A DNA stretch of 64,000 nucleotides, taken from NCBI GenBank assembly GCA_041484665.1, contig JBGPIA010000008.1:96001-160000 (forward strand). Reading direction: 5' to 3'. This DNA comes from Candidatus Krumholzibacteriia bacterium. GTDB taxonomy: Bacteria > Krumholzibacteriota > Krumholzibacteriia > JAJRXK01. Positions 34,825 to 53,085 of the stretch are shown here, in pieces. Position numbers and translations under genes: made by a program. Under the pieces are notes generated by a model. The model was not told the origin of the DNA and made no database searches. It was given only the letters and a program-made list of their open reading frames with translations. Position 1 is the first letter of the stretch. Every line of letters begins with the position of its first letter.

Positions 34825-36227
34825 CGCGGTTCCTCCGGCGGCTTGGAGGCGGGCAGGATCATGCGCATCTCGAAGATGGAGATCATGGGCAAGAACCGGA
34901 TGAACAGGAACATCAGGGAGAGGAACAGGCCGATCGTCCCGAAGAAGGTCATGAAGTCGAAGCGCGTGGGATGGTACATGCCCCACGACGACGGCAGGAA
35001 GTCGCGGTGGAGGCTGGTGACGATGATCACGAAGCGCTCCAGCCACATTCCGACGTTCACGAACATGGCGATGATGAACAACGCCGTGACGGAATTGCGC
35101 ACGCGCCGCGACCAGAGCAGCTGAACCACCAGCACGTTGCACAGGATCAGCGCGTACCACGTATAGCGGTACGGGCCGGTGACGCGGTTGAGGATCATGA
35201 ACCGCTCGTAGCGGTTTCCGCTGTACCACGCCATGAAGATCTCGACGGCGTAGCCATAGGCCACGATCAGGCCGGTGGCCAGCATCACCTTGGCCATGTT
35301 CTGCAGGTGGCGCATGGTGATGAAATCCTGCAGCCCGAACAACACGCGCAGCGGAACGGACAGGGTGATTACCATGGCGAATCCGGCGAAGATGGCCCCG
35401 GCGACGAAGTAGGGCGGGAAGATCGTGGCATGCCAGCCGGGGACTTGGGCTGCGGCGAAATCGAAGCTCACCACCGTGTGCACCGAGACCACCAGTGGCG
35501 TGGCCAGCCCCGCCAGCATCAGCGACGCCATCTCGTAGTTGTGCCAGTGGCGCGCCGAGCCCCGCCAGCCCATGGCCAAGAAGCCGTACAGCTTCTGCGC
35601 GAGGAGGCTCTGGGCGCGGTCGCGCAGCGTGGCCAGATCGGGGATCAGCCCCACGAACCAGAACAGGAGCGACACCAGCGCGTACGTCGAGACTGCGAAT
35701 ACGTCCCACATGAGCGGGCTGCGGAACTGCGGCCACAGCCCGAAGGTGTTGGGGATGGGCAACAGGTAGTAGAAGCGCCATGCCCGCCCCATGTGGATGA
35801 GCGGGAAGAGCCCCGCGCACGCCACTGCGAACAGCGTCATGGCCTCGGCAAAACGATTGATGGAGTTGCGCCACGGCTGACGCAGCAGCAGCAGGATCGC
35901 CGAAATCAAGGTGCCCGCGTGCCCGATCCCGATCCACCACACGAAGTTGATGATGTCGAACGCCCAGCCCACCGGGATGTTGTTCCCCCAGATCCCGATG
36001 CCCTTGGCGAACAGCATGGTCAGCGAGTAGAGCAGCATCATCAGGATGGCGAACGATCCGCCGAACGCGGCGTACCACCACTTCGGCGTCCCGGTCAGGA
36101 CCACCGCCGAGATCTTGTCGGTGACCGTGGCCGCGGTGTGCCCCGGCGCCATCAATGGAGGCCGAGTCGGCGGGGCGGGACGGGCTGGGTTGGGCCGGGC
36201 TGGGCCGGGAGCCGGGATCTCCGCCAC
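34821..36227 (-). CDS. actC: alternative complex III NrfD-family quinol-binding subunit
   Basis: NFVWWIGIGHAGTLISA, SPLMWDVFAVSTY, GWHATIFPPYFVAGA. Confidence 0.95.
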   Translation of the reverse strand: MAEIPAPGPARPNPARPAPPTRPPLMAPGHTAATVTDKISAVVLTGTPKWWYAAFGGSFAILMMLLYSLTMLFAKGIGIWGNNIPVGWAFDIINFVWWIGIGHAGTLISAILLLLRQPWRNSINRFAEAMTLFAVACAGLFPLIHMGRAWRFYYLLPIPNTFGLWPQFRSPLMWDVFAVSTYALVSLLFWFVGLIPDLATLRDRAQSLLAQKLYGFLAMGWRGSARHWHNYEMASLMLAGLATPLVVSVHTVVSFDFAAAQVPGWHATIFPPYFVAGAIFAGFAMVITLSVPLRVLFGLQDFITMRHLQNMAKVMLATGLIVAYGYAVEIFMAWYSGNRYERFMILNRVTGPYRYTWYALILCNVLVVQLLWSRRVRNSVTALFIIAMFVNVGMWLERFVIIVTSLHRDFLPSSWGMYHPTRFDFMTFFGTIGLFLSLMFLFIRFLPMISIFEMRMILPASKPPEEPR

Positions 36228-39200: not shown

Positions 39201-39385
39201 TCGAGGCGGCGCGGCGCATCGGTGTCGGCGGGCAGGCACGTCGGCGGACCGGTCGGGGGGCCGGTCGGCGGACTGGCCGGGGCGCCGGTCGGCAGGCCGG
39301 CGGACCCGCTACCGGCCGGGCTCTCGGGCGGGCGCAGCGGGTCGTGCTGATGATGCTGCAGTGCGGCCTCGCCGAGCGGCTCCAC
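36227..39385 (-). CDS. actB: alternative complex III subunit B (molybdopterin-oxidoreductase-like plus Fe-S domain, TAT-variant signal)
   Basis: YWRSLDEL...SRRRFL...[32 protein letters not shown]. Confidence 0.95.
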
Positions 39386-39394
39386 GGCGTCCTC

Positions 39395-40045
39395 CTAGCG
39401 GTGGCAGGTCGAGCAGTAGGTGAGGCTCTGGATCTGGTACTCCTGCACCAACTCGCGCCCCAACTCCTCCTGCGCCCGCGGGGGCTGCCAGCCCATGGTG
39501 AAGATCTGCGAGCGCGGCCGGACGTAACGCTCGGGATGACGGTGGCAGTCGACACACCACTCCATCTGCAGCGAGCTCGCCTGCTGCATGAGGGGCATCT
39601 TGTCCACGCGGCCGTGGCACGTCTCGCAACCGATCCCCTTGGCAACGTGGATACTGTGGTTGAAGTAGACGAAGGCCGGCAGATCGTGAACGCGCGTCCA
39701 GCGGATCGGGAGGTTTGCGCGCAGGCTCTGGCGCACCGGCTCCAGCATCGGACTGTCGGACCAGATCTGCTTGTGGCAGTTCATGCAGGTCGCCGTAGGC
39801 GGGATCCCCGCGAAACTCGACTCCTCGACCGAGGTGTGGCAGTAGCGGCAGTCGATTCCCAGGCCGGCCGTGTGGTGGTCGTGGCTGAAGGGCACGGGTT
39901 GCTGCAGGATGACGGTGCGGCCGGTCGCATAGGACGACCGGCTCAGCTGGGCGAACACCCAAGCGACCGCGGCAAGGACGAACACAGCACCATAGATGGT
40001 GAACCGCGAGATCGCGTTGGTACTGCGATGGAAGATCTGGGCCAT
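39395..40045 (-). CDS. actA: alternative complex III pentaheme cytochrome c
   Basis: Five CxxCH motifs (CRYCH, CMNCH, CETCH, CVDCH, CSTCH) and QPVPFSH. Confidence 0.95.
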   Translation of the reverse strand: MAQIFHRSTNAISRFTIYGAVFVLAAVAWVFAQLSRSSYATGRTVILQQPVPFSHDHHTAGLGIDCRYCHTSVEESSFAGIPPTATCMNCHKQIWSDSPMLEPVRQSLRANLPIRWTRVHDLPAFVYFNHSIHVAKGIGCETCHGRVDKMPLMQQASSLQMEWCVDCHRHPERYVRPRSQIFTMGWQPPRAQEELGRELVQEYQIQSLTYCSTCHR

Positions 40046-40228: not shown

Positions 40229-40738
40229 TCACTGGCCGCGGTCGACGTCCTGCTTGCTGTAGAACCCCAGCTCGGATGCCGTCAGCAGCTTGGTCAGGAG
40301 CGCCACCTGCCCCACGTGGTAGGAGAAATGCTCGACCACGTGCACGAGCATCGCCAGGCCGGTCTCGCTGAAGGCCTGGATGCGCCGCCGCTGGAGGAGC
40401 GAGCCGGGATCCAGGCGCACCAGGGCGGTCTCCACCGCACGGGAGGTGGTGTTGAGCTGGGCGATCAGGTCCGCCTTGCTAAGCTCGCCGCGAGCGTCGA
40501 ATTCGGCCTGACGCTGGCGCTGGTCGGGCTCCCCGCCCAACCCGTGCGCGATCCACTGACGGGCGTTGCCGCAGACGTGCAGCACGAGATTGCCCACGGC
40601 GTTGGAGGCCTCGTTGGGGCGCCACCAGACCTGCTCCTCGGTGAGCAGCTCCAGGCAGCGGCGCAGCCGTGGGATCGACTCGTCGAGCAAACGGCGGCGC
40701 GACTCCTGGACCAACGCGCGGGCAACGTCGCCGTCCAT
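40229..40738 (-). CDS. DinB/DUF1572-like metal-binding protein
   Basis: WWRPNEASNAVGNLVLHVCGN...R.RQAEF...EHFSYHVGQ. Confidence 0.85.
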   Translation of the reverse strand: MDGDVARALVQESRRRLLDESIPRLRRCLELLTEEQVWWRPNEASNAVGNLVLHVCGNARQWIAHGLGGEPDQRQRQAEFDARGELSKADLIAQLNTTSRAVETALVRLDPGSLLQRRRIQAFSETGLAMLVHVVEHFSYHVGQVALLTKLLTASELGFYSKQDVDRGQ

Positions 40739-42663
40739 CAGCGCCCCGTCCGCGCGACGACGCGCTTGCCCAGGCTCGCCTGGAACTCGATCTGGAGGAA
40801 ATCGATGGTCACGCCCGCGCTGCGGTTGCCCAGCGGGAGCGCATCCACGGTGAACTGGTGGTCGCCATACCAGCTCCCGCTGGTGTAGAGGGCGTCGCTG
40901 TAGTAGGGCAGGTTGGCGCTGGGCGCCTGCAGCGGGGTCGAGGCGTTGAGCTGCCCGTCGAGCGTCCACTGGATCCCTTCGCCGGCGGCGGGCCCCGTCG
41001 AGCCCGGGCTCCAGCGGACAACACCGCTGCTGAACACCGGACCTGTGGTGATCTCACCGGTGAAGGCGAGGCTGCGCTGGCTGCCGGCAGCGGAGTTCAG
41101 CGCGCCCCAGTCCAGGTCGAGGGGGCTGTCGTCCTGCGCGCCGAAGGTGACGCGTTCGTTTCCGACCCGCACCGCGATCCAGTCGAACTGCACGCTTCCG
41201 GAGAACCCGTCGAAGGCAATGGTGAACAGCCGGTCGGTGTCGATGGCACGCACGGGCAGGTCAAACGTGTCCAGCGTCCAGGTCGTTGGATCCGACGTCG
41301 CGCGCTGCTGGCTGGTGCCGAAGGCCAGCTGCTCGTTCTCGTAGTACACCGTGAAGCTCCATGGGCCCGTGCCGTTGCCCGTGATCCAGCGCAGCGAGAT
41401 CTGACTGCCGGCAGGGATCGTCCCGCTCAGCAGGAACTGTGGCTTGGGCAGGACCGCGACCACTGCGTTGGCGGACACCCCGAGGTTGGCGTCGCCGCCG
41501 TTATTGTTCTGCTGTCCGATCTGCAGGCGGGTCAACGAGAGTGGCGCGCGGCGCGTGAGGCGCGTCTCGCTCGCGGCGATCTCGGCTCCGCGTGAAACCT
41601 CCGCCCGGATGGTGTTCACGCCCAGGTCGAGGGGGACTCCGACGTATCCGAAGGCTGAACCGTCCAGCCAGCCCGGCCCGACCGGCTTGCCGTTGACCAG
41701 GACGACCACGCTATCGGCTTGCGAGTCGTTGATCGTCCCGCCGAGATCCACCGCGCTGCGCGTCGTCACGACGCCTTGGGGCGGCTGGTCGATCGTGATC
41801 ACCAGCGGCGCTTTGCGCACCACGATGACGGTGTCCGCGTTGCTGCCGGACAGCGGTGCTGGCCGGGTGGCCGCCACGATGATGGTGTCGGGGCCGTCGT
41901 GCAACGCAACGTCCGCCGCGAACGAGCCCAGCTGCAGGGGCAAGACTGTGGAAGCAACGCCCGGGCGGAGCGAGATGGTTCCTGCCGTCAGGAAGGGGTC
42001 GTTGACCTGTCCCGTCACGTGCAGCGTGGGGCTGGTGACGTTCTGCCCGTCGGTGGGCACGGTGATCTGCATGACCAGCGGCCCCGTGCCGGGCAGGGAG
42101 TACCCGCGCGGCGGAGCGACCCGCAGCGTCACGGTGCCCTCCACTCCTGGCTGCGCGAATCCCGGAGCGATCCCGATCCACGACACGGCCGTGCTGTCGA
42201 GGAATGCGATCGCTACCAGATTCCAGCCGATGGCAGCCGCGAGCACGCCGTCGGCCACCTGTCCATCGAAGTGCAGCTCGCTTTCGGCGACGATGGGGAA
42301 GCGCGCGCCCAGCAGGGCGCGCCACGACGGCCACGAGAGCACGGGCGGTTGGTACGACTGGATCAGCGACTGGTACGGGGCCGAGACCGGGATTCCGCCC
42401 ACGATGGGGATCCCCGAAGCGTCGAGCACCAGGGCCATCGCGCGGCTGATCGCCCGGCTGGGGCTCGCCCCGGGCAATCCCGGGCGCGCCGCCTGCTGCG
42501 CGCTGTCATCGAACAGAACACGCAGCTCCAACCGCGCGGGGCGGGTGGCGTCGTCGCTCGCGCAGCCGGGCGGCAGCGCGAGCGCCAGCGCGATGAGCAG
42601 AACGCTTCGCACAGCGGCCGCACACAAAGCCGACAGCCGCCGGCGGCACGCCCATCGGGCCAT
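40738..42663 (-). CDS. putative lipoprotein with tandem Ig-like (glucodextranase domain B-like) modules
   Basis: Signal ending PPGC; two ITxP..G...V.G.(V/I).D...F...V.L..G.(D/N)TI modules; AGGAGG 9 nt before ATG 42663. Confidence 0.65.
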   Translation of the reverse strand: MARWACRRRLSALCAAAVRSVLLIALALALPPGCASDDATRPARLELRVLFDDSAQQAARPGLPGASPSRAISRAMALVLDASGIPIVGGIPVSAPYQSLIQSYQPPVLSWPSWRALLGARFPIVAESELHFDGQVADGVLAAAIGWNLVAIAFLDSTAVSWIGIAPGFAQPGVEGTVTLRVAPPRGYSLPGTGPLVMQITVPTDGQNVTSPTLHVTGQVNDPFLTAGTISLRPGVASTVLPLQLGSFAADVALHDGPDTIIVAATRPAPLSGSNADTVIVVRKAPLVITIDQPPQGVVTTRSAVDLGGTINDSQADSVVVLVNGKPVGPGWLDGSAFGYVGVPLDLGVNTIRAEVSRGAEIAASETRLTRRAPLSLTRLQIGQQNNNGGDANLGVSANAVVAVLPKPQFLLSGTIPAGSQISLRWITGNGTGPWSFTVYYENEQLAFGTSQQRATSDPTTWTLDTFDLPVRAIDTDRLFTIAFDGFSGSVQFDWIAVRVGNERVTFGAQDDSPLDLDWGALNSAAGSQRSLAFTGEITTGPVFSSGVVRWSPGSTGPAAGEGIQWTLDGQLNASTPLQAPSANLPYYSDALYTSGSWYGDHQFTVDALPLGNRSAGVTIDFLQIEFQASLGKRVVARTGR

Positions 42664-42879
42664 GGCCGACATCCTCCTGGGAACGCTGAGGTGAGGCTCA
42701 GTGGGGACGGATCGCCGCCCCGAGCGCAAGCATCCTCAAGGAGGGGTACCCTGGCAAGGGCGAACCTGCGGTGTGCCGGGAGACGCGCAGCGTGCTTGGG
42801 GCGAAGTGATCCCGAGCGGCGCGACGCTGCCACGACGATGCCGCGGCGAGATCGCGGCCAGATCGCGCTGGACTCGAGG

Positions 42880-42916
42880 AAGAGAAATCGGCCGGAGGCT
42901 CTCGCCTCCGGCCGAT
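42880..42916 (-). terminator. terminator hairpin downstream of the Cys-Thr repeat gene
   Basis: Perfect 13-bp stem ATCGGCCGGAGGC-N4-GCCTCCGGCCGAT (42887-42916) followed by TTCTCTT on the minus strand. Confidence 0.65.
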
Positions 42917-43000
42917 CGCTTCCATCAGGGCGTGCGCCACGTCGCGCCGCGACGCGCGCGCTTCAAGCGCAGGGCAACCGGTTCGCGACCGTCGTGGTCG

Positions 43001-44392
43001 CTAGCGATCGTACCCGTGCTTGACCTCGCCCCAGCTCTTGGTCGCGTCAGGCACCGGGCAATTGACGCCCAGCGTACAACGTGGCCCGCTCGTGCAGACT
43101 GCAGAGCTCGTGCAGCCGATCGCGCTTGACGTGCAGATTGTCGCCGTCGTGCACACTCCGCCGGTGCAGTTGGCTCCTGCCGTACACCCCGGCCCGGCCG
43201 TGCACGCGAACGGAGCGGCTGTGCAGCCCGCGCCGACCGTGCAAGCGTTCGGACCCTGTGTACATGCGATGCCGAGGGTGCAACCCGCGCCCAGCGTGCA
43301 GGCCTGGGGACCCTGCGTGCAGGTGGGGCCGCCCGTGCAGCCACCGCCGAAGGTGCAGCCCGGTCCGTTCGTGCAGACGTTGCCGGCCGTGCAGCCCGCC
43401 GCGCCCGCCGTGCAGGTCGCGCCGTTCGTGCAGGCGGGTACGCCAGCCGTGCAACCCGCGCCCAGCGTGCAGGCCTGGGGACCCTGCGTGCAGGTGGGGC
43501 CGCCCGTGCAGCCAAGGCCGAAGGTGCAGGCCGGTCCGTTCGTGCAGACGTTGCCGAACGTGCAGCCCGCCGCGCCCGCCGTGCAGCCCGCGCCGTTCGT
43601 GCAGGCCGGTACGCCTGCCGTGCAGCCCGGACCGGACGTGCAGGCCGTCGGATCGAAGGTGCAGTGACCGCCGCCGGTGCAACCCGCGCCCTGGGTGCAG
43701 CCTGCCGCCCCGGCCGCGCCGGATGTGCAGAATGCGCCCCTCGTGCACGCGTCCGGACCGGAAGTGCAGCCAGGGCCCTGCGTGCAGGTCGTGCCGACCG
43801 TACACGCGTGGGGACCGAACGTGCAGTTGTCACTCGAGGTGCAGTTGGTGCAGTTGGTGCAGACCCCGGACGTGCAGCGGTCGCCTGCCGTACAGGCCGC
43901 AGGCCCCGCCGTGCAGTTCGCGCCCATCGTGCACCACGCGCCCGTGGTGCAGCTGGGGCCGTCCGTGCAGACGGGAGACTGAGTGCAGTAGACGCCCTGC
44001 GTACAGCCCGAGCCCTGCGTGCAGGTCGCTCCACCCGTGCAAAGTGACTGCGCCGTGCAGTCGGGAGTCACGGTGCAGATACTCTGCGTGCATTCCGCCC
44101 CCACAGTGCAGTCTTGCGCAAGGGTGCAGTCAGGGCCCTGCGTTTGCTCGTTTGACTTGTCGACGCCGGCCTGCGGTGGGCCGGTCAGGAACGGGTCGCC
44201 GACCTTCCAGACCTTGCCGGCCATCCCGTTGGCGGAGAGATCGATGATGTGCGTGAACAGCGGCGACGCTTCCGCGTCGGTGGCCTGCACCCGCAGACCG
44301 TGCTGGACCGCCACGTAACCGACCGCCCCCACCGCGAGCAGGAGCAGGCACAGGATCCGGGTACATCGGCCGACCTTGAACGTTGTCCTCAT
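43001..44392 (-). CDS. secreted Cys-Thr hexapeptide-repeat protein with SWGEVK C-terminal motif
   Basis: Sec-type signal, ~50-aa non-repetitive segment, 58 CT-initiated units of mostly 6-7 aa, then CPVPDATKSWGEVKHGYDR. GGGGGTGA RBS before ATG 44392 (alternative ATG 44428). Confidence 0.9.
   Translation of the reverse strand: MRTTFKVGRCTRILCLLLLAVGAVGYVAVQHGLRVQATDAEASPLFTHIIDLSANGMAGKVWKVGDPFLTGPPQAGVDKSNEQTQGPDCTLAQDCTVGAECTQSICTVTPDCTAQSLCTGGATCTQGSGCTQGVYCTQSPVCTDGPSCTTGAWCTMGANCTAGPAACTAGDRCTSGVCTNCTNCTSSDNCTFGPHACTVGTTCTQGPGCTSGPDACTRGAFCTSGAAGAAGCTQGAGCTGGGHCTFDPTACTSGPGCTAGVPACTNGAGCTAGAAGCTFGNVCTNGPACTFGLGCTGGPTCTQGPQACTLGAGCTAGVPACTNGATCTAGAAGCTAGNVCTNGPGCTFGGGCTGGPTCTQGPQACTLGAGCTLGIACTQGPNACTVGAGCTAAPFACTAGPGCTAGANCTGGVCTTATICTSSAIGCTSSAVCTSGPRCTLGVNCPVPDATKSWGEVKHGYDR
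43278..43622. repeat. 171-bp (57-codon) tandem duplication inside the Cys-Thr repeat gene
   Basis: The same ~65-bp string begins at 43278 and 43449; protein units 29-37 are repeated as units 38-46. Confidence 0.9.
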
Positions 44393-44525
44393 GACGATAG
44401 AGTCACCCCCCCAGAGATTTGCCCTCATGGGCTTCTGGTTGAGAGAGCTGCAAAAGCACGTCCTGACGAGCGCCGGGCACCAAGGGGGCAGGACGCGCGG
44501 CTGGGACGTGCCCGCAGCATACCTG

Positions 44526-44539
44526 TCTACGATCGTAGA
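44526..44539. promoter_or_regulatory. 14-bp perfect palindrome in the divergent intergenic region
   Basis: TCTACGATCGTAGA. Confidence 0.45.
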
Positions 44540-44715
44540 TCTCTTGGCCTCGGGCGCGATATAGGGAAAACTCTGATGCGGCCACGACGTCGCAGAAGTT
44601 GTTCAGGGACAGCGGGCGGCAGCGGCGCGGGGAGCGATGGGCGCCCGACCCGCGCCCCGGGGACCCCCGGGGCGGCTTGCATCTGCCGGTCCCTTGTGCT
44701 CTGCTCAGGCGCAGC

Positions 44716-47391
44716 ATGCATCCCTTCCTCATCGCTGCTTGCGTCCTGCTCGCCGCTGCCTGCCAGGAGCGCGCGCTCGGTCTCAACGGTCAGGCGCCCA
44801 ATACCTTGCTTGGACTGGTCGCGCTGGTTCTCGCCCTGGTCGCGCTGGTCGGGCCTGCGCCCTCCCCTGCGGAGCCCGGCGGGGGGGCTGCCGCTTCGCC
44901 CGCCCGGCCCACCGCCCAGCCCACGATCGGGCGCCGCGTTTGGGCTGGCGGCATCGCCGGCACTGCCCTGATGCTGTTGGGGCTCATCGCCTGGATTGGC
45001 GGAGTTCGCATCGCGCAGCCGTTCGCCCTGGCTGTGGCATTGGGCGGGGCGGTTCTGGTGCAGCGCCCGGGCGGCTCGCACCAGCGGCTCGCGGGCGCCC
45101 TGCTCGGCTTCGCCCTGCTGCATGCCACCTGCGTGACCGTGCGGGACCACCTCCCGCTCTGGTGGCTGTACGAGCGCGCGAGCGTCGGATTCAGCGGCGC
45201 TGTTTCGGAGCTCAGCGGCCGCCGGCTGGCCCTGGGTCCCCAGTACGCGGGGACGCATCTGGGCGTGATCGCCGGCGTCTACGCAGCGGCGCATCTGCTC
45301 GGTGCCCGGCAGCGGCGCTGGATGTGGGCCGTGCTCGTGCTCGCTCTGCTCCCGCTGGCGGTGGCCCTGCACGTGGCGCTGGGCACGATCGCCTGGTGGT
45401 GGCCGTGGGCGGCCCAGCAGCCGCTGCTGGACGGCGTCGACGCTCCCATCATCCTGTTCGGATTGCTGCTGCTGCCGATTGGATTGCTGTGGCGAACCCA
45501 ACCGCTCGCGCCGCGCGGGGGTGGCCCGCGGGTACGGTCGCAGCCAGGGTCGCAGCCGGACTCTCAGCCCCCGTCGCAGCCACGGTCGCAGCCGGGGTCT
45601 CTGGCCGCCCGCAGGCCGTGGCTCGCCGCGGGCGTGGGCCTCACTCTGCTGGTGCTGGGGATCATCCTCGCCACCTGGGAGCGCGCCGTCCCGGCCGCGC
45701 ACGGCCGGGTCACGATCTGCACGCGTGGCACCTGGTCGACGAAGCTTCCGGTCTGGGGCCTCTACGGCAGCCAGGCGACGACCGGTGCGAACGCCTCTGC
45801 TCTCCCGTTGCTGCTGCAGGACGCCGGCTTCACGGTGGCTCTCCACGACACCGTGATCGATGACGCGCTGCTGCAGGGCACCGACGTGCTGTTCTTCATG
45901 GACCTGGGCGAGAAGCTGGACCCGGCCGAGCGGCAGGCCATCTGGCGGTTCGTCGAGCGCGGCGGCGGACTGCTGGTGCTGGGCGACCACACGGACATCC
46001 AGGGTGTGATGCACCCGACCAACGAGCTGCTGGAGCCCGTGGGAGTCCGCCTGAAGTTCGACTCGGCGATCCCGTTCGTGCCGCGCTGGACCTGGTACAA
46101 CGCCATGCGCCTGCACCCGCATCCAGCGTTGCGCGGCTTGCGCGACGAGAGCGACGTGAAGGTGAGCGTGGGCGCGTCGCTGCAGGCGCCGCCCGGGGCG
46201 CGGCCGCTCCTGACCGGCCGCCTCGCGTTCAGCGACGCGGGCAACCTGTACAACGCCCGGGGCGCCTATCTGGGGAACATGCAGTACGACGCCGGCGAGC
46301 GCACCGGGGACATCCTGCTTGCCGTAGAGGCGCGCTATGGACGCGGCAAGGTGGTGGTGTTCGGTGACACGTCTTCCTTCCAGGTCACCTCGTCCCCCAA
46401 TACCGTGCAGATGGTGTGCGGGCTGTTCCAGTACCTGGCCGATCCGCGCGGCCACGGCCCCGGCGCCGGCCGTCGTCTGGCCGGGAGCCTGCTGCTCGTT
46501 GCCGGCGCGCTCCTGCTGGTGGCCAGCGGCGAGCTGCTGCCGGCCGCTCTGGCCGCGGCCGCGGTGGCCGGTTGGCTGGCCCTGGCCGCCACCGACGCGC
46601 ACGGACGGGTCGACGCGCCGCGTCCCACGCACGGCGCGCTCGCCTACCTCGACCTGGCGCATGGCAACCGCGTCGACCTGCACGCCGGCCAGGTCAACGG
46701 CATCAACGGCCTGCTCCTCACTCTGATGCGAGCCGGTTTGCTGCCGCAGGGGCACAAGGACTTCGATCCGAGCGCCCTGCAACGTGCGGAGCTGGCCGTG
46801 GTGGATGCGCCCGCCTTCTCGTTCTCGGCCGGCGAGATCCGCGCCCTGCACCACTACGTTGAGCAGGGTGGCAATCTGATCGTGTCGGTCGGCTGGGAGG
46901 AGCGCAACGGTGCCCAGGCACTCTTGTCCAGCTTCGGCTACGCCATCGGGCGTACGCCCATCGGCGCCGCCCACGACGCGATCTGCAGCATCGACCGCCA
47001 TTACGCCAACATGCACGAGTCGTGGCCGGTGGAGCGCCCCGCGGCGCGCGGCGAGGTGCTCGTCAGCTCATGGAACTACCCGCTGATCGTGCTCGAGGCG
47101 ATCGGCAAGGGTCACTTGCTGGTCATCGGAGACTCATTCTTCCTGCTGGACGGCAACCTCGAGAGCAGCGAGTCGTTCAACGCCAACAACATCCTGTTCG
47201 TGCGCGCGGTGCTCGAGCGCATGCTTGGGCGGGAGCTGGGGCCGCCTGAGGAGCCGTCCCACCGTTCCGTGCGGATCGCGCCGCGGACGGCAGACCAGCC
47301 CGCGCAACCCGCGGCAGCCGGCGCCGGCGACACTCCAGCACGGCACGATCCGGTCACGCCACCACGGCGCTCGCACGGAGGGACCCCGTGA
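44716..47391 (+). CDS. polytopic membrane protein with two GldG/GIFT(DUF4350)-like extracytoplasmic domains (paralog A)
   Basis: About 9 TM segments; TDVLFF...FVERGGGLLVLGDHT...GKVVVFGDTS; 2 TM segments; LDLAHGN...YVEQGGNLIV...GKGHLLVIGDS. Confidence 0.8.
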   Translation: MHPFLIAACVLLAAACQERALGLNGQAPNTLLGLVALVLALVALVGPAPSPAEPGGGAAASPARPTAQPTIGRRVWAGGIAGTALMLLGLIAWIGGVRIAQPFALAVALGGAVLVQRPGGSHQRLAGALLGFALLHATCVTVRDHLPLWWLYERASVGFSGAVSELSGRRLALGPQYAGTHLGVIAGVYAAAHLLGARQRRWMWAVLVLALLPLAVALHVALGTIAWWWPWAAQQPLLDGVDAPIILFGLLLLPIGLLWRTQPLAPRGGGPRVRSQPGSQPDSQPPSQPRSQPGSLAARRPWLAAGVGLTLLVLGIILATWERAVPAAHGRVTICTRGTWSTKLPVWGLYGSQATTGANASALPLLLQDAGFTVALHDTVIDDALLQGTDVLFFMDLGEKLDPAERQAIWRFVERGGGLLVLGDHTDIQGVMHPTNELLEPVGVRLKFDSAIPFVPRWTWYNAMRLHPHPALRGLRDESDVKVSVGASLQAPPGARPLLTGRLAFSDAGNLYNARGAYLGNMQYDAGERTGDILLAVEARYGRGKVVVFGDTSSFQVTSSPNTVQMVCGLFQYLADPRGHGPGAGRRLAGSLLLVAGALLLVASGELLPAALAAAAVAGWLALAATDAHGRVDAPRPTHGALAYLDLAHGNRVDLHAGQVNGINGLLLTLMRAGLLPQGHKDFDPSALQRAELAVVDAPAFSFSAGEIRALHHYVEQGGNLIVSVGWEERNGAQALLSSFGYAIGRTPIGAAHDAICSIDRHYANMHESWPVERPAARGEVLVSSWNYPLIVLEAIGKGHLLVIGDSFFLLDGNLESSESFNANNILFVRAVLERMLGRELGPPEEPSHRSVRIAPRTADQPAQPAAAGAGDTPARHDPVTPPRRSHGGTP
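45538..45597. repeat. 5 x 12-bp in-frame tandem repeat (SQPx)
   Basis: TCGCAGCCAGGG TCGCAGCCGGAC TCTCAGCCCCCG TCGCAGCCACGG TCGCAGCCGGGG. Confidence 0.85.
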
Positions 47392-50135
47392 CGCTGCTCT
47401 GGCTCGCCGCACTACTGGTTGCCGTGGGCTGGGTGGAGCTCTTGCCCACCGTCGGAGCGCCACGCACGTCGCTGGGCGTGGTGGAAATCGTGTGCGCTGC
47501 GGCTGCCACGGGCGTCGCGCTGCGGCGCGTGCGCGTGCGTCTGCGGGCTCGGACGCGCCTGCTGCTGATCGCGGCCGGGATCGCGGCCATCGCCGTGCTC
47601 CCCTTCCCCTATGGCCTGGGGCTGTTCCTGGTGGCCCTGGCCAGCGGGCTGCTTTGGCTGCCAGCGCCGCGGCCGCCCGCGCTGCTGCAAGGCGCGATCG
47701 CGGCGCTGGGAGGCGTCGGGCTCGCGCTGGCCGTCCTGGGAGCGCTCAGCCCCGTCTACTTCCTGGTGGCCGCCCGCGTCCACGAGCTGGGACCGCTCAC
47801 CTATCCGGTGAGCTGGGCGCTGCGGCTGCTGGCGCAGCACGCCAGCGCGGATCCACCGTTCGTGCACCTGGGGGCGGTCGGCGGAGTCGTGACCTTCGAC
47901 GTGAGCCTGGAGAAGCTGGGCGGCTACCCGCTGTTGTGCTTCGTGGCCGTCGCCGCGTTGCTGGTTTTCCTGGCCGGAGGGCGCCGCTCGTGGAGCGCGC
48001 TGTTCGCCCTGCTCGGGCTGGGAGCGATCTACGGGCTGCTGCGCCTGCTGCTGCTGTCGCTGCTGCAGCAGGGAGGCGAAATCCCCGAGATCTACTACAA
48101 CCGCGTCTGGGACTGCGGAGGGCTGGCCGTGCTCTGCGGCTTCTGCGTGCTCGCGCTCGTCGTGCGCGGGGGCGCCGTGGTGGATGCGCAGACGGTGGGT
48201 GAGCAGGGAGCGCCGGCAGCCTCGGGCGGACCGGCCGCCGCGGCGAGGCGTCCGGATCGCGAGCTCACGTTGGCGCTGTTATCGGCCGCCCTGGCGCTGG
48301 CCGTGGTCGGCGCCTACGGCTACCAGGACCCTGGCCATCCGAAGCGCGGCCGCGTCATGATCGATGAGGCCCACTCCAACTGGGAGTGGAGCACGATTGC
48401 ACTGGATACCGAGTCCTACGGTGTGCAGACGGTCTACAACTACTCGGAAATGATGCGCTACTTCGGCCATTACTACGAGGACATCACCAACTTCGACAGT
48501 CTCACGACCGACGTGCTGGCCAAGACGGACGTGCTGATCCTCAAGACCCCCACGCGTCCCTACGCGGAGGCCGAGGTCGACGCCATCGTGCGCTTCGTCG
48601 AGCAAGGCGGCGGTCTGTGGTTGGTGGGCGACCACACGAACATCTTCGGGATGAGCAGCAACCTCAATCGCGTCGCGCGGCGCTTCGGCATGCGCTACAA
48701 CTACAATGCGGTGGTTGACCTGCTGACGCGCGGCCGCCAGCTCTATCTGCACCCGCGCCTGCTGGCGCATCCCGCCGTGATCAACATGCCGCCGCTGCTG
48801 CTGGCGACCTCCTGCAGCATGCAGGCGCCACTGAGCAGCCGCGACGTGATGATCGGGCAGTCCCTGCTCGCCGATCAGCTCGACTACTCGCAGAACACGT
48901 TCTTCGGCAACTTCGCCCCCGACCCGTTCGAGCCGTTCGGCACGATCCTGCAATCGGCGGCGACGACGCGCGGGAAGGGACGCGTGCTGCTGTTCAGCGA
49001 CAGCACGGTTTTCAGCAACTTCTTCATGTTCATCCAGGGCAAGGCGGAGCTGGCGCTGGGCAGCGTGGCGTGGCTGATGCGGGAGAACCACACCACCTGG
49101 GTGCCGCCCTTCCTGGCCGCGTGCGCGTTGCTGTTGGCCATCGCGGCGGCGACGCTCGCGGCACGCTTGAACCGCCTGCGCGCGCTAACGGCCGCGCTGG
49201 GTCCGGGAGCGCTCGCGTTCATCGTGGGCGCGCTGCTGCTCACCGCCCAGACCAAGCGCGCCTACCCCCTGCCCTCGCCCCACCAGGAGCCGCCGTGGAT
49301 CGCCTTCGAGCGGGGGCACTGCTCCTACGGGCTGCCCGAGACCCATGAGATCCCCGACAACTCGGCGGAGAGCCATCAGACCTTCTACGTGTGGACGGGG
49401 CGCGTAGGCTACATGCCGTTCACGGCACCGCTGGCGCAGTGCCTGCAGCGGGCGCGGATCCTCGTGCTGGTCAACCCACGCGATCCGTTCGATACAGCCA
49501 GCCGCGACGCAATCGAGCGGTTCGTGCGGGACGGGGGCCGCCTCCTGGTGTTCGACTCCCCGCATGTCGGGCAGGTGCAGATCCGCGAGCACGGTCAAGA
49601 GCGTAGCGCAACCATCGGGACGACGGCCAATGACCTGTTGCCCGCCTTTGGGATCCGCATGCTCGGGGCCGAGGTCGACTCGGTGGTGGCGATCAGCACC
49701 GCGACCAAGGACTCGGTGACCATGCTCTACCACGTGGGCGCGCTGGAGGGCGGCACACCGTTGCTGACTCGTCCCGACGGAACCCCGATCCTCGTGGTGG
49801 CCGATCACGGCCGGGGAAAGGTCGCGGCCATCTGCGCCTCGGACAGCTTCACCGACGCGGTGCTGGGCACCACGTCGCAAATCCCCTCGCCGGAGCAGCT
49901 CGCGCTCTATCGGATCGAGTTCTCGCTGCTGGACGACGTGCTGCGCCCGCCAGACGTGCCGCGCCCGGTGCGCACGCCACCGCCAGTGCGGCCGTCCTCG
50001 TCCGCGCGTACGTCGTTCGCGCCGGCTGGCGCGCCGGCTGGCGCGCCAGCCGCCACGCCCGGCACCACGCCCACCCCCGTCCCGTCCGGGCCCAACGCGC
50101 CTGCAGCGCGGATCCCCGCCCAGACACCACGGTAG
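47388..50135 (+). CDS. polytopic membrane protein with exosortase-like segment and two GldG/GIFT(DUF4350)-like domains (paralog B)
   Basis: GTGA overlap with paralog A; IDEAHSNWE...TDVLILKTP...FVEQGGGLWLVGDHT...GKGRVLLFSDS; 2 TM segments; FERGH...FVRDGGRLLV...GRGKV. Confidence 0.8.
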   Translation: MTLLWLAALLVAVGWVELLPTVGAPRTSLGVVEIVCAAAATGVALRRVRVRLRARTRLLLIAAGIAAIAVLPFPYGLGLFLVALASGLLWLPAPRPPALLQGAIAALGGVGLALAVLGALSPVYFLVAARVHELGPLTYPVSWALRLLAQHASADPPFVHLGAVGGVVTFDVSLEKLGGYPLLCFVAVAALLVFLAGGRRSWSALFALLGLGAIYGLLRLLLLSLLQQGGEIPEIYYNRVWDCGGLAVLCGFCVLALVVRGGAVVDAQTVGEQGAPAASGGPAAAARRPDRELTLALLSAALALAVVGAYGYQDPGHPKRGRVMIDEAHSNWEWSTIALDTESYGVQTVYNYSEMMRYFGHYYEDITNFDSLTTDVLAKTDVLILKTPTRPYAEAEVDAIVRFVEQGGGLWLVGDHTNIFGMSSNLNRVARRFGMRYNYNAVVDLLTRGRQLYLHPRLLAHPAVINMPPLLLATSCSMQAPLSSRDVMIGQSLLADQLDYSQNTFFGNFAPDPFEPFGTILQSAATTRGKGRVLLFSDSTVFSNFFMFIQGKAELALGSVAWLMRENHTTWVPPFLAACALLLAIAAATLAARLNRLRALTAALGPGALAFIVGALLLTAQTKRAYPLPSPHQEPPWIAFERGHCSYGLPETHEIPDNSAESHQTFYVWTGRVGYMPFTAPLAQCLQRARILVLVNPRDPFDTASRDAIERFVRDGGRLLVFDSPHVGQVQIREHGQERSATIGTTANDLLPAFGIRMLGAEVDSVVAISTATKDSVTMLYHVGALEGGTPLLTRPDGTPILVVADHGRGKVAAICASDSFTDAVLGTTSQIPSPEQLALYRIEFSLLDDVLRPPDVPRPVRTPPPVRPSSSARTSFAPAGAPAGAPAATPGTTPTPVPSGPNAPAARIPAQTPR

Positions 50136-51958
50136 GGCAGCGCGCCCTGCAGCGGCCCCGCGCCGGCAACGGCGCGCTCGATCAGCATGCGCCATGCACG
50201 GCGCGCATCGCGCAGGGCACAGGCCGCCTCGGCCGCGGTGGCGGGCAGGACCGCGATGGTGCGGCTGCGATGGTAGCAACCGTCGCCGAACGCGGCGCCC
50301 ATCGGCCAGCACAGCGCGCCCGGCGCGCAGCTCCAGTGCCGCGGTACTCCCCAGGCACGCTCGTCCTGCGGCAGGATCACGCGCAGCGCCACGTCGATCG
50401 ACGCGTCCCAGGGTGTGGCCGTGAGGCCCCGGCCGGTGGACTCCACACGCGTCCAGCGCCCGGGCGCCAGCCGCGCCTCCACCACGAAGTGCTCCTGCGT
50501 TGCCGCGTCCACGGGAATTACGGAAAGCAGCCGCGCCGGGATGCCCCGGGCGCGCAGCAGCGCTGCGAGCAGGTTGGCGTGACCGGTGCAGACGCCGAAG
50601 CCGCGCCGCAGCGTCGAGAGCGCATCCTGATTGCCCAGCGGCCGGATCGCGATCGCGCAGCGCTTGAAGGACTCGGCGGCGCGCGCGACGGTCGCCGGCG
50701 GGGCCCCCGCCGGCGCCAGCGATCGCGCCGCGGCAACGATCTCCGGCGCGCCGGACTGGATCGCGGGCGAGGGCGCGCTCCAGCAGGCGTCGTCGTCCAG
50801 CGGGAGGTCAGCCGGCAGGATCGGCGCCCCCTGCGCCAGCACGACCTGCTCCTCCCAGTACACAAAGAGCAGAGTGTCCTGCGGCTCGGTCGAGAGCTCC
50901 ACGTGCACGGAAGCGTTGCCGCGCTCCTCGAGCAGCCGGAACGAGAGGATGCGGTCCGCGGGCTGTGTGCGCAGCGCCAGCCGCAGAGGCGCTTGGTGTT
51001 GCTCGATGGGAGGAACGGCGAATCGCAGCCATGATCGGCCCGCGGACGACGCCGGGCGCAGCACGTACGCGCCCTCGGCGAGAACGATTTGCAGCCGCGC
51101 CTGGGGCGCTGACCGAATCGCCGCGCCCACCGACTCATCCGCTGCCTCGCCCGGCTCCGCCCGCGGCGCGCGCGCTACGGCGTCCGGTCCAGCGGACCGG
51201 CCGTAGGGATCGAGCCGCCAGGGCGGGCCCGCCACATCGCTCGCACGCGCGAGCTGCAGCGCGCGAAAGCTGGCCGCGCCGGAGCCGTAGAGCCCAGCGC
51301 GCACCAGCACGGTCTGTGTCCCAGCGGGGAGGACCAGCGAGCGCTCGAAACGGCGCCACGGCTGCGTGCCGCCCAGGTCGCCGGCGGCGCGTAGCGGGAA
51401 GCGCGCCAGCTCGCGATCCTGGGCGAAGCACTGCAGCACGACGTTGGCGGCGACCGCTTCAGCCGTCGCCATCCAGCCGCCCAGCAGCAGGCGATCGCCC
51501 GCGCGCACACCCTCCACCCGCTGTGTCCAGGAGCGGAGGTAGCCCTGATCCGGCCGGGCAACGACGATGCTGGCGACGCCGTCCTCGATCGCGAAGCGTG
51601 CCCGCGGCGCGCGGCGGGGCTCGGCAGCCGCCTGCGCCGGCGCCACCCGGCCCAAGTCGGCAAGCGCGCGCGTGTGCGTCGCGCCAACCGAGTCAGCGGC
51701 CGCGGGCCCCGGCGGCACGCGCTGCGAATCGGCGGGCGCGACCGCGCGCGAGCGACCCACCGCGCGCCAGGCGATGGGTTGGCCCTGCTCCAGCTGCGTG
51801 AAGTCACCGTTGCGCAGCAGGTTCTGTGGCGCGCGCGCCCACGACGCAGGGGCCGCCGCGCACGACCCGGTGCGGGATCTCCCGACGGGCGGCGCGCCAG
51901 GCGCCGCACACGACGCCACGCACGCGAGCGCCACCGCTGCAATCCGCCCAGCGCTCAC
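49907..51958 (-). CDS. transglutaminase-like domain lipoprotein with N-terminal CBM-like jelly-roll
   Basis: VASC lipobox; NLLRNGDF...W; GVCTGHANLLAALLRARGIPAR...H..VEA...W..VEST. Confidence 0.8.
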   Translation of the reverse strand: MSAGRIAAVALACVASCAAPGAPPVGRSRTGSCAAAPASWARAPQNLLRNGDFTQLEQGQPIAWRAVGRSRAVAPADSQRVPPGPAAADSVGATHTRALADLGRVAPAQAAAEPRRAPRARFAIEDGVASIVVARPDQGYLRSWTQRVEGVRAGDRLLLGGWMATAEAVAANVVLQCFAQDRELARFPLRAAGDLGGTQPWRRFERSLVLPAGTQTVLVRAGLYGSGAASFRALQLARASDVAGPPWRLDPYGRSAGPDAVARAPRAEPGEAADESVGAAIRSAPQARLQIVLAEGAYVLRPASSAGRSWLRFAVPPIEQHQAPLRLALRTQPADRILSFRLLEERGNASVHVELSTEPQDTLLFVYWEEQVVLAQGAPILPADLPLDDDACWSAPSPAIQSGAPEIVAAARSLAPAGAPPATVARAAESFKRCAIAIRPLGNQDALSTLRRGFGVCTGHANLLAALLRARGIPARLLSVIPVDAATQEHFVVEARLAPGRWTRVESTGRGLTATPWDASIDVALRVILPQDERAWGVPRHWSCAPGALCWPMGAAFGDGCYHRSRTIAVLPATAAEAACALRDARRAWRMLIERAVAGAGPLQGALPYRGVWAGIRAAGALGPDGTGVGVVPGVAAGAPAGAPAGANDVRADEDGRTGGGVRTGRGTSGGRSTSSSSENSIR

Positions 51959-53085
51959 GGCGTGATCCCGTGGTCCTTCAGCCACCCCTGCCACAGCGCG
52001 CGCACGGAGTCAGGGACCGCGGCCCGAGCCGCCCCGCTCCGGCGCGCCAGCGCGGACCAGGGCGCCGCGCCCACGGGCAGGCTGTCGCAGGGGCTGCGGA
52101 CGAGCAAGGGCTGCAGCCCGTCCTGCGAGGTGAGTGCGCCAGGATCGGCCTCGCAGTTGCCGTCGACCTCGATCGCCGGCGGTTTGCATGCGCCGCCCGC
52201 GGCACCGCCTTCGTTCTGCCACACGAGATTGCGGTGCAGCACCGCCGGCTTCTGCTCTCCAAGCAGGTAGACGGCGGCGCCCTTGCGGCTGCGGGCGATC
52301 ACGTTGTCCCGGATCAGCGCCGGCGAATCGTCCAGGTAGATTCCGCCGCCGCTGCTGGTGGCCGCGTTGCCGATCATCGTGTTGCCGATGATCACCGGAG
52401 TCGAGACGTGCGCCAGGACCGCCCCGCCCGACACGGCGTCGTTGTCGACGATGAGGTTGTTGTAGACGAGCGGCGCGCACCGCGCGTAGGCGGCCACGGC
52501 TCCGCCCAGGTATCCCTCGGCGCGCCGCATCACGTTGCAGGCGATCACCGCGTTGCTGCCATGGTTCATGTACACGCAGGGGCCCAGGTAGCCCAGGTGG
52601 TCCTGGATGATATTGAAAACCACGAGGGGGCTGGAGCCCTCCAGATAGATGCCGCCGCCGCCCGAGTTGGGGTGGTCCCGGCGGCCGTGCTGGAGCGTGA
52701 AGCCCTGGATGAGGGTGGAGGCGTCGAGCTGCTGGCCGAACAGCACGTAGCGATCTCCCGCCGCATCGAGGATGGTCGAGTCAGCGCCGGAGGCGCTCAT
52801 CAGCGCGACACCTGACTTGAGCGTGACCGTCTTCTCATAGCGCCCCAGTCCCACCAAAACCGTATCGCCCGCGGCAGCGGCCGCCATCGCCGTCTGGATG
52901 GTCGGTGCCGCGTTCCGCCATGTCGCAAACGGGGGAGCGCCGTGACCGTCGGGGCGCACGTGCAGCACAGCCGCCGCCGCGACACCCGCGCACAGCGACG
53001 CCGCAACGACGAGCGGGAGCAACCGGACACGCAGCACCAACGACCGGTGCCGGATCGCCGCGAGCGGGACCTGTAGACGCTTCAT
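51955..53085 (-). CDS. secreted right-handed parallel beta-helix repeat protein
   Basis: Signal peptide; TIQTA...GDTVLV..G.Y; IQGFTL; repeated GGGIY/GGAV...N.I..N. Confidence 0.85.
   Translation of the reverse strand: MKRLQVPLAAIRHRSLVLRVRLLPLVVAASLCAGVAAAAVLHVRPDGHGAPPFATWRNAAPTIQTAMAAAAAGDTVLVGLGRYEKTVTLKSGVALMSASGADSTILDAAGDRYVLFGQQLDASTLIQGFTLQHGRRDHPNSGGGGIYLEGSSPLVVFNIIQDHLGYLGPCVYMNHGSNAVIACNVMRRAEGYLGGAVAAYARCAPLVYNNLIVDNDAVSGGAVLAHVSTPVIIGNTMIGNAATSSGGGIYLDDSPALIRDNVIARSRKGAAVYLLGEQKPAVLHRNLVWQNEGGAAGGACKPPAIEVDGNCEADPGALTSQDGLQPLLVRSPCDSLPVGAAPWSALARRSGAARAAVPDSVRALWQGWLKDHGITP

Follow-up and report, generated by a model that had tools for sequence, protein, structure and literature searches.

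A Cys-Thr thioether is one known link in ranthipeptides, and peptidases occur among both the GATase-like and the exosortase folds. We know of no GIFT domain that catalyses Thr/Ser-Cys cross-linking, and the nearest folds, those of IFT52, S1P domain 4 and OST48, are to our knowledge non-catalytic. Exosortases depend on a catalytic triad that includes Cys and His, according to the part of a preprint drawn on here (bioRxiv 10.1101/2023.06.07.544157). A search of open-access full text found no account of the A/B-precursor system described below, and the consulted part of PMC7726332 mentions DUF4350 in an expression table only.

The repeat gene and the grammar of its core

The locus lies in the window, a stretch of 64,000 nucleotides from a Candidatus Krumholzibacteriia bacterium. 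The three ORFs of the original prediction were all present, the repeat gene lying on the minus strand across a divergent gap (323 bp, predicted at ~320 bp) from gene A, whose TGA stop overlaps the GTG start of gene B as GTGA (47388-47391). The features of the repeat gene and its surroundings are:

~42878-42917, minus strand: terminator-like 14-bp hairpin with U-rich tail (folding energy)
43001..44392, minus strand: precursor gene P0001, with signal peptide, leader, 59 Thr...Cys units and host-type tail (18 homologues)
43001..43057, minus strand: C-terminal tail P..[ST]WGx[VIL]KxxY, genome-wide and not system-specific (41 ORFs)
43058..44143, minus strand: core, Thr96-Cys457, 59 units Thr-first and Cys-last (sequence)
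44198..44266, minus strand: conserved leader in the variant of the CT clade, residues 55-77, in which an amphipathic stretch comes after the SPLF motif (leader profile)
44282..44392, minus strand: signal peptide, a basic N-region and a hydrophobic stretch (hydropathy 2.15, residues 23-41)
44393..44715, no strand: divergent intergenic region of 323 bp between the repeat gene and gene A

The ORF of the repeat gene extends over 43001-44428; its start is likely to be ATG 44392, encoding 463 aa, and a further in-frame ATG lies upstream at 44428. The gene has a GC3 of 0.84, and its product found zero matches in Pfam up to E 1 and no usable match in the atlas. Cleavage of the signal peptide is probable after ...VQA, as judged by eye. 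The terminator that the gene had been said to own was seen as a hairpin with a U-rich tail, a 54-nt stretch folding at -37.7 kcal/mol (z -6.4), but was missing from the consensus terminator scan. No sigma-70 consensus promoter was found in the 323-bp divergent region. Contigs from four DNA runs span the stretch with one differing letter listed and support the assembly, the repeat number not being fixed by them.

The core of P0001 contains 59 Cys, 58 of them directly followed by Thr, in units of mostly 6-7 aa. The distance from Thr to Cys is five residues in 40 units, six in 13, four in 3, two in 2 and nine in 1. The unit had been described as Cys-Thr-x-Gly, but because the array opens with Thr96, five residues ahead of the first Cys, and closes on Cys457, which no Thr follows, the sequence is best read as repeating Thr-x-Gly-x-x-Cys.

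This order was followed through 71 non-redundant complete cores, from which the frameshifted precursor of locus L025, open-ended or N-containing ORFs, cores with fewer than six Cys and duplicates by the first 25 core residues had been left out. Cores with very different periods obey one rule, Thr or Ser first and Cys 4-9 residues later, which is valid over Cys periods of 4, 6, 7 and 11-15. Arrays start on an unpaired Thr and end on a Cys without its usual neighbouring Thr: a Thr is found 3-10 residues ahead of the first Cys in 65/71 cores and after the last Cys in 33/71, while Thr or Ser adjoins the last Cys in 7/37 TC-type and 5/22 CT-type cores, against 846/963 and 694/711 internal Cys respectively. 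Between 95 and 98% of Cys could be assigned to an upstream Thr of their own, compared with 66-78% in shuffles, and 86 of the 191 Cys in other secreted proteins of the P0001 genome had one. A caveat that must be applied is that pairing each Cys with a Thr downstream of it succeeds for 90-93% too, and direction is therefore given by the array ends only; moreover, the cores are related and small p-values overstate. The Thr position was occupied by Thr or Ser in 542/544 six-residue units and never by Val. Segments between Cys lacked Thr in 169/2,214 cases. Most cores contain more Thr than Cys, whereas in parts of L219 there are several Cys to each Thr.

Two explanations treat the core as a fold or a ligand. 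It could form a disulfide-laddered beta-solenoid like the beetle antifreeze protein, with A/B as a folding chaperone or oxidase, and the CT hexamers do resemble the TmAFP repeats. PF02420 is precomputed on 3 of the 18 P0001 homologues, and one CT homologue gives sub-threshold matches to hexapeptide beta-helix models. Even Cys counts tend to prevail among the genome's other secreted proteins, which makes disulfide formation in this host probable, and for the same reason the failure to find DsbB and VKOR in 10/10 system-bearing genomes is not counted as evidence. However, the core Cys number 59, which is odd, and no even bias is seen over the 71 cores (36 odd and 35 even, against 20 even and 8 odd control proteins; p=0.07, a weak test). 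The P0001 units also show no 2- or 3-unit periodicity (0.119/0.121 against 0.104/0.106 shuffled, with 0.114 at lag 1), Val is absent from the Thr position, CxxC has no conserved copy in the A or B families, and periods from 4 to 15 go with the same leader and A/B. One fold shared by Cys periods of 4, 6, 7 and 11-15 is unlikely, and the solenoid as a whole we consider quite unlikely. Alternatively, the Cys of the cores may be ligands of metal or metal-sulfur centres, with A/B loading the metal. This is consistent with the very high Cys content of the cores, the anaerobe-type labels of many hosts and conserved His/Glu/Asp/Tyr that could bind metal, but it is highly improbable, leaving Thr-first polarity and the restriction to Thr/Ser unexplained and being at odds with the rarity of CxxC spacing (46/2,214 gaps).

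Distribution of the module and its leader

The A profile at E 1e-30 reaches 1,607 representatives (50% identity; A, B and fragments counted together), and the A/B family spans ~20 phylum-level labels, archaea included. Conservation of a Cys-rich ORF near A/B homologues was borne out, a Cys/Thr protein flanking A/B in 28/35 genome loci (3 kb flanks) and 9/16 metagenome loci (flanks of at least 3 kb) after one spurious 6-Cys grammar match at locus L031 had been removed; a 38-aa leader match, L224, was left out of counts. In 4/7 genomes without a nearby precursor an unlinked one occurs elsewhere. Sequence comparison thus defined A/B and the Cys/Thr precursor as a conserved, widespread three-part module in many bacteria and some archaea. 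Many of the hosts have anaerobe-type labels, and archaeal genomes have several short precursor copies. One genome has a precursor while A was not found.

The Cys/Thr proteins share solely a signal peptide and the SPLF leader, the leader being conserved and the core and tail variable. This N-terminal handle had been missed in the original prediction. P0001 ranks first among the 47,850 ORFs of its genome with the leader profile; in a separate search it scores E 4e-7, P0001 itself being part of the model. The leader was found in 5/5 related genomes with full-length A+B, in one (71% completeness) without them and in 0/54 remaining related genomes, using a model built partly from four of the five A+B genomes plus the window. 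B proteins adjoining CT-type cores form one group (6/6, SH-aLRT 99). It is very probable that A/B have a leader-directed maturation role of some kind.

The absence of an adjacent radical SAM gene was largely borne out across loci: among the 30 largest flank clusters of 161 loci, examined by eye, there was no further gene family conserved across phyla and no linked radical SAM/SPASM maturase, and these clusters did not show the genes adjoining the system at 40738-42729, 49907-51994 and 51955-53085 to be conserved partners. At a single locus, L023, a radical-SAM-like ORF adjoins B. An unlinked cytoplasmic radical SAM/SPASM enzyme might nevertheless install a ranthipeptide-like Cys-Thr thioether before export; A/B would then be a receptor, a quality-control device or a leader peptidase. 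SPASM-domain proteins are present unlinked in 5/5 genomes tested, and the peptidases among GATase-like and exosortase folds fit the last of these roles. Such an arrangement is very unlikely given that the flank clusters examined contain no such family, that core type follows the B tree, and that the leader comes after the signal peptide and stands 23-173 aa from the core with no fixed cleavage motif.

Architecture of the membrane proteins

The features of the two membrane proteins are:

44716..47391, plus strand: gene A, ~891 aa, with a degenerate exosortase-like TM domain, GIFT1, two TMs and GIFT2
45703..46440, plus strand: A GIFT1, with H425-T426, D449, W460, D507 and D551-T552 invariant (56/56; numbering from ATG 44716, the likely start)
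46633..47223, plus strand: A GIFT2, elbow position without His; D646, H649, R672, D806 and E816 conserved
47388..50135, plus strand: gene B, 915 aa, on the plan of A, with a low-complexity tail beyond ~residue 856
47679..48167, plus strand: B exosortase-like membrane domain, R219 kept in 89/92, without catalytic Cys or His
48342..49088, plus strand: B GIFT1, candidate catalytic domain (invariant polar residues)
49290..49943, plus strand: B GIFT2, few polar residues conserved (W669, R672)

By sequence A and B are paralogues, as had been proposed (BLASTP 23% over 537 aa, E 5e-18; profile-profile P=100% over 637 columns), and models of both (pLDDT 86.9 and 93.7) agree on the shared plan of many TM helices, domain 1, two TMs and domain 2, with FVExGGGLxxxGDHT in domain 1 of each. 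A precedes B in 133/133 loci carrying both, and it is this gene order that suggests a heterodimer; a search for fused forms of A above 1,570 aa came back empty, which is weak evidence.

The atlas and hhalign lent some support to an exosortase-like membrane domain, and fold searches upheld the GIFT folds. B matched exosortase in the atlas at 0.85, with best family matches agreeing in 10/10, and by hhalign at P 52%, E 1.5e-4 (A, P 24-43%; reversed controls <1%), so that a distant kinship is likely for B and weak for A. PF09721 had zero matches in 56 A and 25 B members. No Cys column reaches 30% in the TM domains of either family; the exosortase Cys site reads T/S-x-E-K in B and G-P-T-x-x-G in A, the His column is F/W/Y in B with His not seen in A, and the Arg is kept in B only. 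Also conserved in the B domain (of 92) are H132 (78), T/S173 (78), E/D175 (85) and K/R176 (67).

The original prediction had A/B process or anchor the C-terminus of the repeat protein. An exosortase-like domain in B points that way, as does the failure to find PF09721 in the P0001 genome although 41 ORFs share the tail. The missing catalytic Cys and His speak against this reading. The tail occurs on 13/71 cores and has no TM helix in P0001, so that the exosortase-type signal (motif, TM, basic) is absent from this tail, and other hosts replace it with T9SS-type, choline-binding-like, beta-propeller or TM tails. Since tails differ by host, A/B would not be C-terminal sortases, and cutting and anchoring by them is hardly credible.

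Both proteins have two DUF4350/IFT52_GIFT matches, with PF14258 and PF23355 above cut-off in each, while the GldG equivalog (TIGR03521) scores 22 bits, far below its cut-off of 389.85. GIFT domains fill the matches of whole-protein fold searches with A/B, the question of a GT-C fold included, and IFT52 ranks first in Foldseek and VIA. B GIFT1 aligns with IFT52 at Z 21.7 (rmsd 2.4, 207 aligned), and OST48 shares the GIFT fold at Z 18.2 (rmsd 3.2, 218 aligned). Invariant in 92/92 B GIFT1 domains are Y350, K386, H416, N427, D538-S539-T540 and S543, and E327, W332, T417, H461 and R532 are kept in 91/92. Judged from topology, these polar residues appear to lie at the ends of the strands where class I GATase folds have their active site.

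The same observations can be read as a leader-directed transferase that puts a lipid-derived group (sugar, glycerophosphate or acyl) on Thr/Ser hydroxyls or Cys thiols, the downstream Cys being a relay or position mark with no cross-link. The GIFT fold of the OST subunit OST48, the strict hydroxyl requirement at the Thr position and conserved Arg/Lys/Glu/His in the B membrane pocket argue for it, and archaeosortase is tied to lipid attachment in the consulted part of PMC7157517. We consider it unlikely, however, as by itself it has no need of one Thr ahead of each Cys, array ends included, and by eye the 30 largest flank clusters contained no glycosyltransferase or donor family.

Proposed maturation and comparison with known systems

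The reading that we tentatively prefer, at a little under an even chance, is that the A/B enzyme faces outward and, once a chain has been exported, cross-links its Thr/Ser to Cys in a lanthionine-like manner. Together A and B would make up an enzyme, bound to the membrane, that matures secreted precursors of RiPP-like type. The signal peptide would export the precursor, and A/B, whose GIFT domains are predicted to face outward on the strength of the models and of basic loops on the inner side, would recognise the SPLF leader, as co-occurrence suggests. They would then move along the core, linking every Thr/Ser with the nearest downstream Cys that is still free, at a distance of 4-9 residues; the pairing rule is seen in the sequence, and the bond would most likely be a methyllanthionine- or lanthionine-like thioether. 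P0001 could in this way carry as many as 59 small tandem rings. Because ATP is absent outside the membrane, the hydroxyl might, we speculate, be activated with a lipid-derived group sitting in the exosortase-like, Cys-less pocket of B, elimination or displacement then taking place at the Lys/His/Asp/Tyr site in GIFT1. By analogy only, the Lys/His/Asp set can be likened to class III/IV lanthipeptide lyases, which use a Lys base, a His acid and Asp in the consulted part of PMC8341899. The host's own C-terminal signal would finally display the stapled protein. No activating donor was identified, which counts against cross-linking, as do the inter-Cys segments that lack Thr, the excess of Thr over Cys in most cores, the Cys-crowded parts of L219, the weakness of the parity test, the genome with a precursor but no A found, and the unlinked SPASM-domain proteins.

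A broader possibility, given slightly less credence than the cross-link itself, is a new RiPP-like class outside the cytoplasm, in which a pseudo-exosortase/GIFT enzyme reads an N-terminal leader and uses a lipid donor to install tens to >100 Thr/Ser-Cys thioethers without ATP. In bacteria the products would be stapled surface proteins that withstand reduction, and in Thermoplasmatota archaea they would be short cyclic peptides present in multiple copies. If cross-linking is true, it would be a third route to thioether-stapled proteins, post-export and with no nucleotide triphosphates, would give a catalytic role to the GIFT fold, a scaffold in eukaryotes, and would offer a two-gene tool with which any secreted chain bearing a 20-residue tag could be polycyclised. 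If the chemistry differs, this would still be a leader-directed envelope protein-modification machine with a defined, testable substrate rule.

Exosortases and archaeosortases (PF09721; PEP-CTERM, PGF-CTERM) appear to share with A/B a helix, beta-hairpin, helix-helix membrane unit, and B keeps their Arg, but A/B lack the catalytic Cys/His, are fused to two GIFT domains and go with a conserved substrate feature that is N-terminal. GIFT/DUF4350 proteins (IFT52, MBTPS1 domain 4, OST48/Wbp1, GldG, ThuA-like) resemble A/B in their class I GATase-like fold (Z 16-22), whereas A/B bear a tandem GIFT pair on a polytopic membrane protein, with GDHT and D-[ST]-[ST] as invariant motifs. The Tenebrio antifreeze protein (PF02420) has, like the CT clade, Cys every six residues, Thr next to it and, at +3, a small residue; here the Cys count is odd, two-face periodicity is absent and most family members have other spacings. 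Cys-x-x-Thr repeats of the TC clade recall ranthipeptide/SCIFF and CXXX-repeat radical-SAM targets, but these precursors are secreted, no radical SAM family is linked, and NCBIfam models of this kind had no match in 15 precursors scanned. Lanthipeptides (LanB/LanC, LanM, LanKC/LanL) share, in the best reading, a conserved leader, a variable core and Ser/Thr paired with Cys, a precursor type that is found here, and several short precursor copies in some genomes. A/B have no LanB, LanC, LanM, LanKC or kinase domain in Pfam, and PF05147 (LanC) and PF04738 (LanB) matched 0/5 genomes, controls likewise being without match. In contrast to lanthipeptides, a signal peptide precedes the leader, the enzyme would be in the membrane facing out, and the product stays joined to a surface-targeting tail, with up to ~118 Cys per chain.

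Genes and predicted folds

According to the original prediction, a minus-strand gene for a secreted Cys/Thr repeat protein diverged from two overlapping genes for paralogous membrane proteins, A and B, and all three were present as claimed when the open reading frames of the window were re-read.

Genes of the window
36227-40045, minus: multiheme cytochrome and molybdopterin/Fe-S fusion genes, which we take to resemble alternative complex III subunits
43001-44392, minus: repeat gene, ATG at 44392 (alternative 44428), from ORF reading
44716-47391, plus: gene A, start most likely ATG 44716, overlapping B through GTGA
47388-50135, plus: gene B
49907-51994, minus: transglutaminase-like protein, its ORF sharing ~230 bp with the low-complexity 3' end of B
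51955-53085, minus: beta-helix protein

Downstream of the repeat gene is a strong hairpin whose tail is U-rich. Sequence comparison showed A and B, each present once in the genome (G000), to be paralogues along their full length with two DUF4350/GIFT matches apiece. Their predicted structures were confident (pLDDT 86.9 for A and 93.7 for B) and the soluble domains matched the fold of IFT52 (Z 21.7, rmsd 2.4, 207 residues aligned), followed by site-1 protease (Z 19.1), OST48 (18.2) and ThuA-like proteins (16.1). Loops flanking the helices that adjoin the GIFT domains were rich in Lys/Arg on alternate sides, consistent with an outward orientation of both GIFT domains; some outer loops were basic as well.

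Residues 95-262 of B are exosortase-like, with an atlas score of 0.85 to PF09721 clusters and an hhalign probability of 52% (E 1.5e-4) against 25 exosortases, as opposed to 0.4% for the reversed control. The preprint bioRxiv 10.1101/2023.06.07.544157 gives the exosortase triad as Cys, Arg and His. B retains the Arg alone (89 of 92 B sequences) and adds conserved residues of its own (His132, Thr/Ser173, Glu175 and Lys176), while no triad residue was kept in the alignment of A. With the exosortase Cys and His lost, sortase-type anchoring by A/B is barely credible. Conservation in both proteins peaks in GIFT1, where His416, Lys386, Tyr350 and Asp538-Ser-Thr were found in 92/92 B sequences and His425, Asp449, Asp507 and Asp551-Thr in 56/56 A sequences; judged from fold topology, these invariant residues would occupy the nucleophile-elbow and His-x-Glu loop sites of class I GATases. 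A lone 582-aa open frame (L024:8330-10078, G021:C83), at a distance from the A/B pair, contains a single domain resembling GIFT1, which matches the A profile at E 6.5e-34.

Distribution, leader and tails

Scans confirmed 405 of 423 genome stretches and 294 of 342 metagenome stretches, with 80 loci retained from each, and the taxon labels spanned ~20 phyla, including Thermoplasmatota archaea. Both genes occurred in 133 of the 161 loci examined, in the order A then B in every one. A Cys/Thr-rich ORF lay nearby, up- or downstream and on either strand, at 28/35 genome loci and 9/16 metagenome loci flanked by 3 kb or more on each side. The loci include several near-copies and cannot be counted as independent. 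For the seven genome loci with no such adjoining ORF, the precursor was encoded elsewhere in four genomes and a further, archaeal, genome gave weak precursor matches only; three of the seven corresponding metagenome loci encode a protein in which the leader is followed by one lone Thr...Cys unit and, after that, a TM helix. Next to A/B at L141, L190, L198, L201 and L209 are ~220-aa proteins made up of a signal peptide, SPLF leader, one Thr-x-x-Pro-x-x-Cys unit and a TM helix; these may be membrane substrates that bear one ring. Inspection by eye of the 30 largest flank clusters revealed no other family conserved across phyla beside A/B, and the transglutaminase-like and beta-helix neighbours in the window were absent among the conserved clusters.

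Precursors have in common a signal peptide followed ~10 residues later by S-P-[LA]-[FY]-x-x-x-L-x-x-[SA]-x-x-x-L, a variant of which was present in 18/18 homologues of the window repeat protein. Run on 60 related genomes, the leader model matched 5/5 with full-length A and B, four of these five and the window being among the sequences in the model; it also matched one 71%-complete genome in which no A turned up, whereas the remaining 54 gave no match. Independent results are these 54 blanks, an unlinked precursor in G021, the match in G041 and five further unlinked precursors. The precursors are probably exported, and A and B would form a complex that recognises the leader. P0199 carries a PF07452 domain that separates its leader from its core, which means that the two can lie apart.

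Several short precursors with a conserved leader and hypervariable Thr/Cys ends were found in four of five archaeal genomes tested, the layout usual for RiPP precursors. Short archaeal precursors with an ESPL[FY]xIRT leader occur in multiple copies at L233, L234, L237, L238 (G078, G084), L235, L239, L242 (G083), L140 and L146. Such archaeal precursors can be 100-170 aa long, one example being L146:429-932. Precursor C-termini differ by host: they are T9SS-type, choline-binding-like or beta-propeller ends, a TM segment with basic residues, or a WGxVK tail. The last of these, P..[ST]WGx[VIL]KxxY with no TM helix, is encoded at 43001-43057 and in 40 other G000 ORFs (41 in total, mostly signal-peptide-bearing); the window copy had no Pfam or NCBIfam match, a PF09721 exosortase was not found in G000, and the tail is a candidate uncatalogued sorting signal.

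Order of Thr and Cys in the core

The 71 complete, non-redundant cores fell into three styles: CT, with Thr right after Cys (n=22, Cys period 6); TC, with Thr/Ser right before Cys (n=37, period 4-7); and spaced (n=12, period 7-15, e.g. T-M-N-P-M-D-x-x-C). Every style fits Thr-first units with Cys 4-9 residues downstream, the window protein having 59 Thr-first units and 59 Cys. Thr was found 3-10 residues ahead of the first Cys in 65/71 cores and after the last in 33/71. After trimming of stray end Cys, Thr/Ser immediately preceded the last Cys in 7/37 TC cores, the second-last in 32/37 and internal Cys in 846/963; in CT cores it immediately followed the last Cys in 5/22, the second-last in 21/22 and internal Cys in 694/711. 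The last Cys mostly lacks its usual neighbour, and a Thr beside a Cys is therefore assigned to the following Cys rather than to the adjacent one. The Thr slot is reserved for a hydroxyl residue: of 544 six-residue units, 508 carry Thr there and 34 carry Ser. The precursor of L219 (G074) has a mixed core, with C-D-P-C stretches between Thr...Cys units and more Cys than Thr.

We tentatively favour, at slightly under even confidence, outward-facing A/B making lanthionine-like Thr/Ser-Cys cross-links after export; no donor or precedent for such chemistry outside the cytoplasm was found. That A/B transfers a lipid-derived group is unlikely. Folding into a disulfide solenoid, on which Cys parity bears, is distinctly unlikely: 36 cores were odd and 35 even, with no even bias, although this does not differ significantly from the other secreted G000 proteins (20 even, 8 odd; p 0.07). 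Against the cross-link reading, Thr is in excess in the cores, 169 of 2,214 inter-Cys segments lack it, and L219 has Cys-rich stretches short of Thr. Metal loading by A/B is highly improbable. Unlinked SPASM proteins are present and also count against cross-linking by A/B; the alternative that an enzyme in the cytoplasm modifies the core while A/B serve as its receptor is very unlikely.

B proteins beside CT cores formed one group (6/6, SH-aLRT 99) in a quick tree of 73 rows, 24 of them unlabelled, and as core labels are common to kin this grouping is no proof of co-evolution. Same-class relatives with A and B had TC cores in four of five cases, which together with the CT group suggests that the cassette travels whole.

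Comparison with known systems

No Pfam or NCBIfam family covered the leader or core (15 precursors by NCBIfam, one by Pfam), and no published description of the system was found in open-access full text. It does not qualify as an exosortase, GldG, radical-SAM RiPP or antifreeze-protein system, and no lanthipeptide enzyme domain was found in A or B. The A/B-precursor system, whose mechanism is a proposal, would work like a RiPP pathway.
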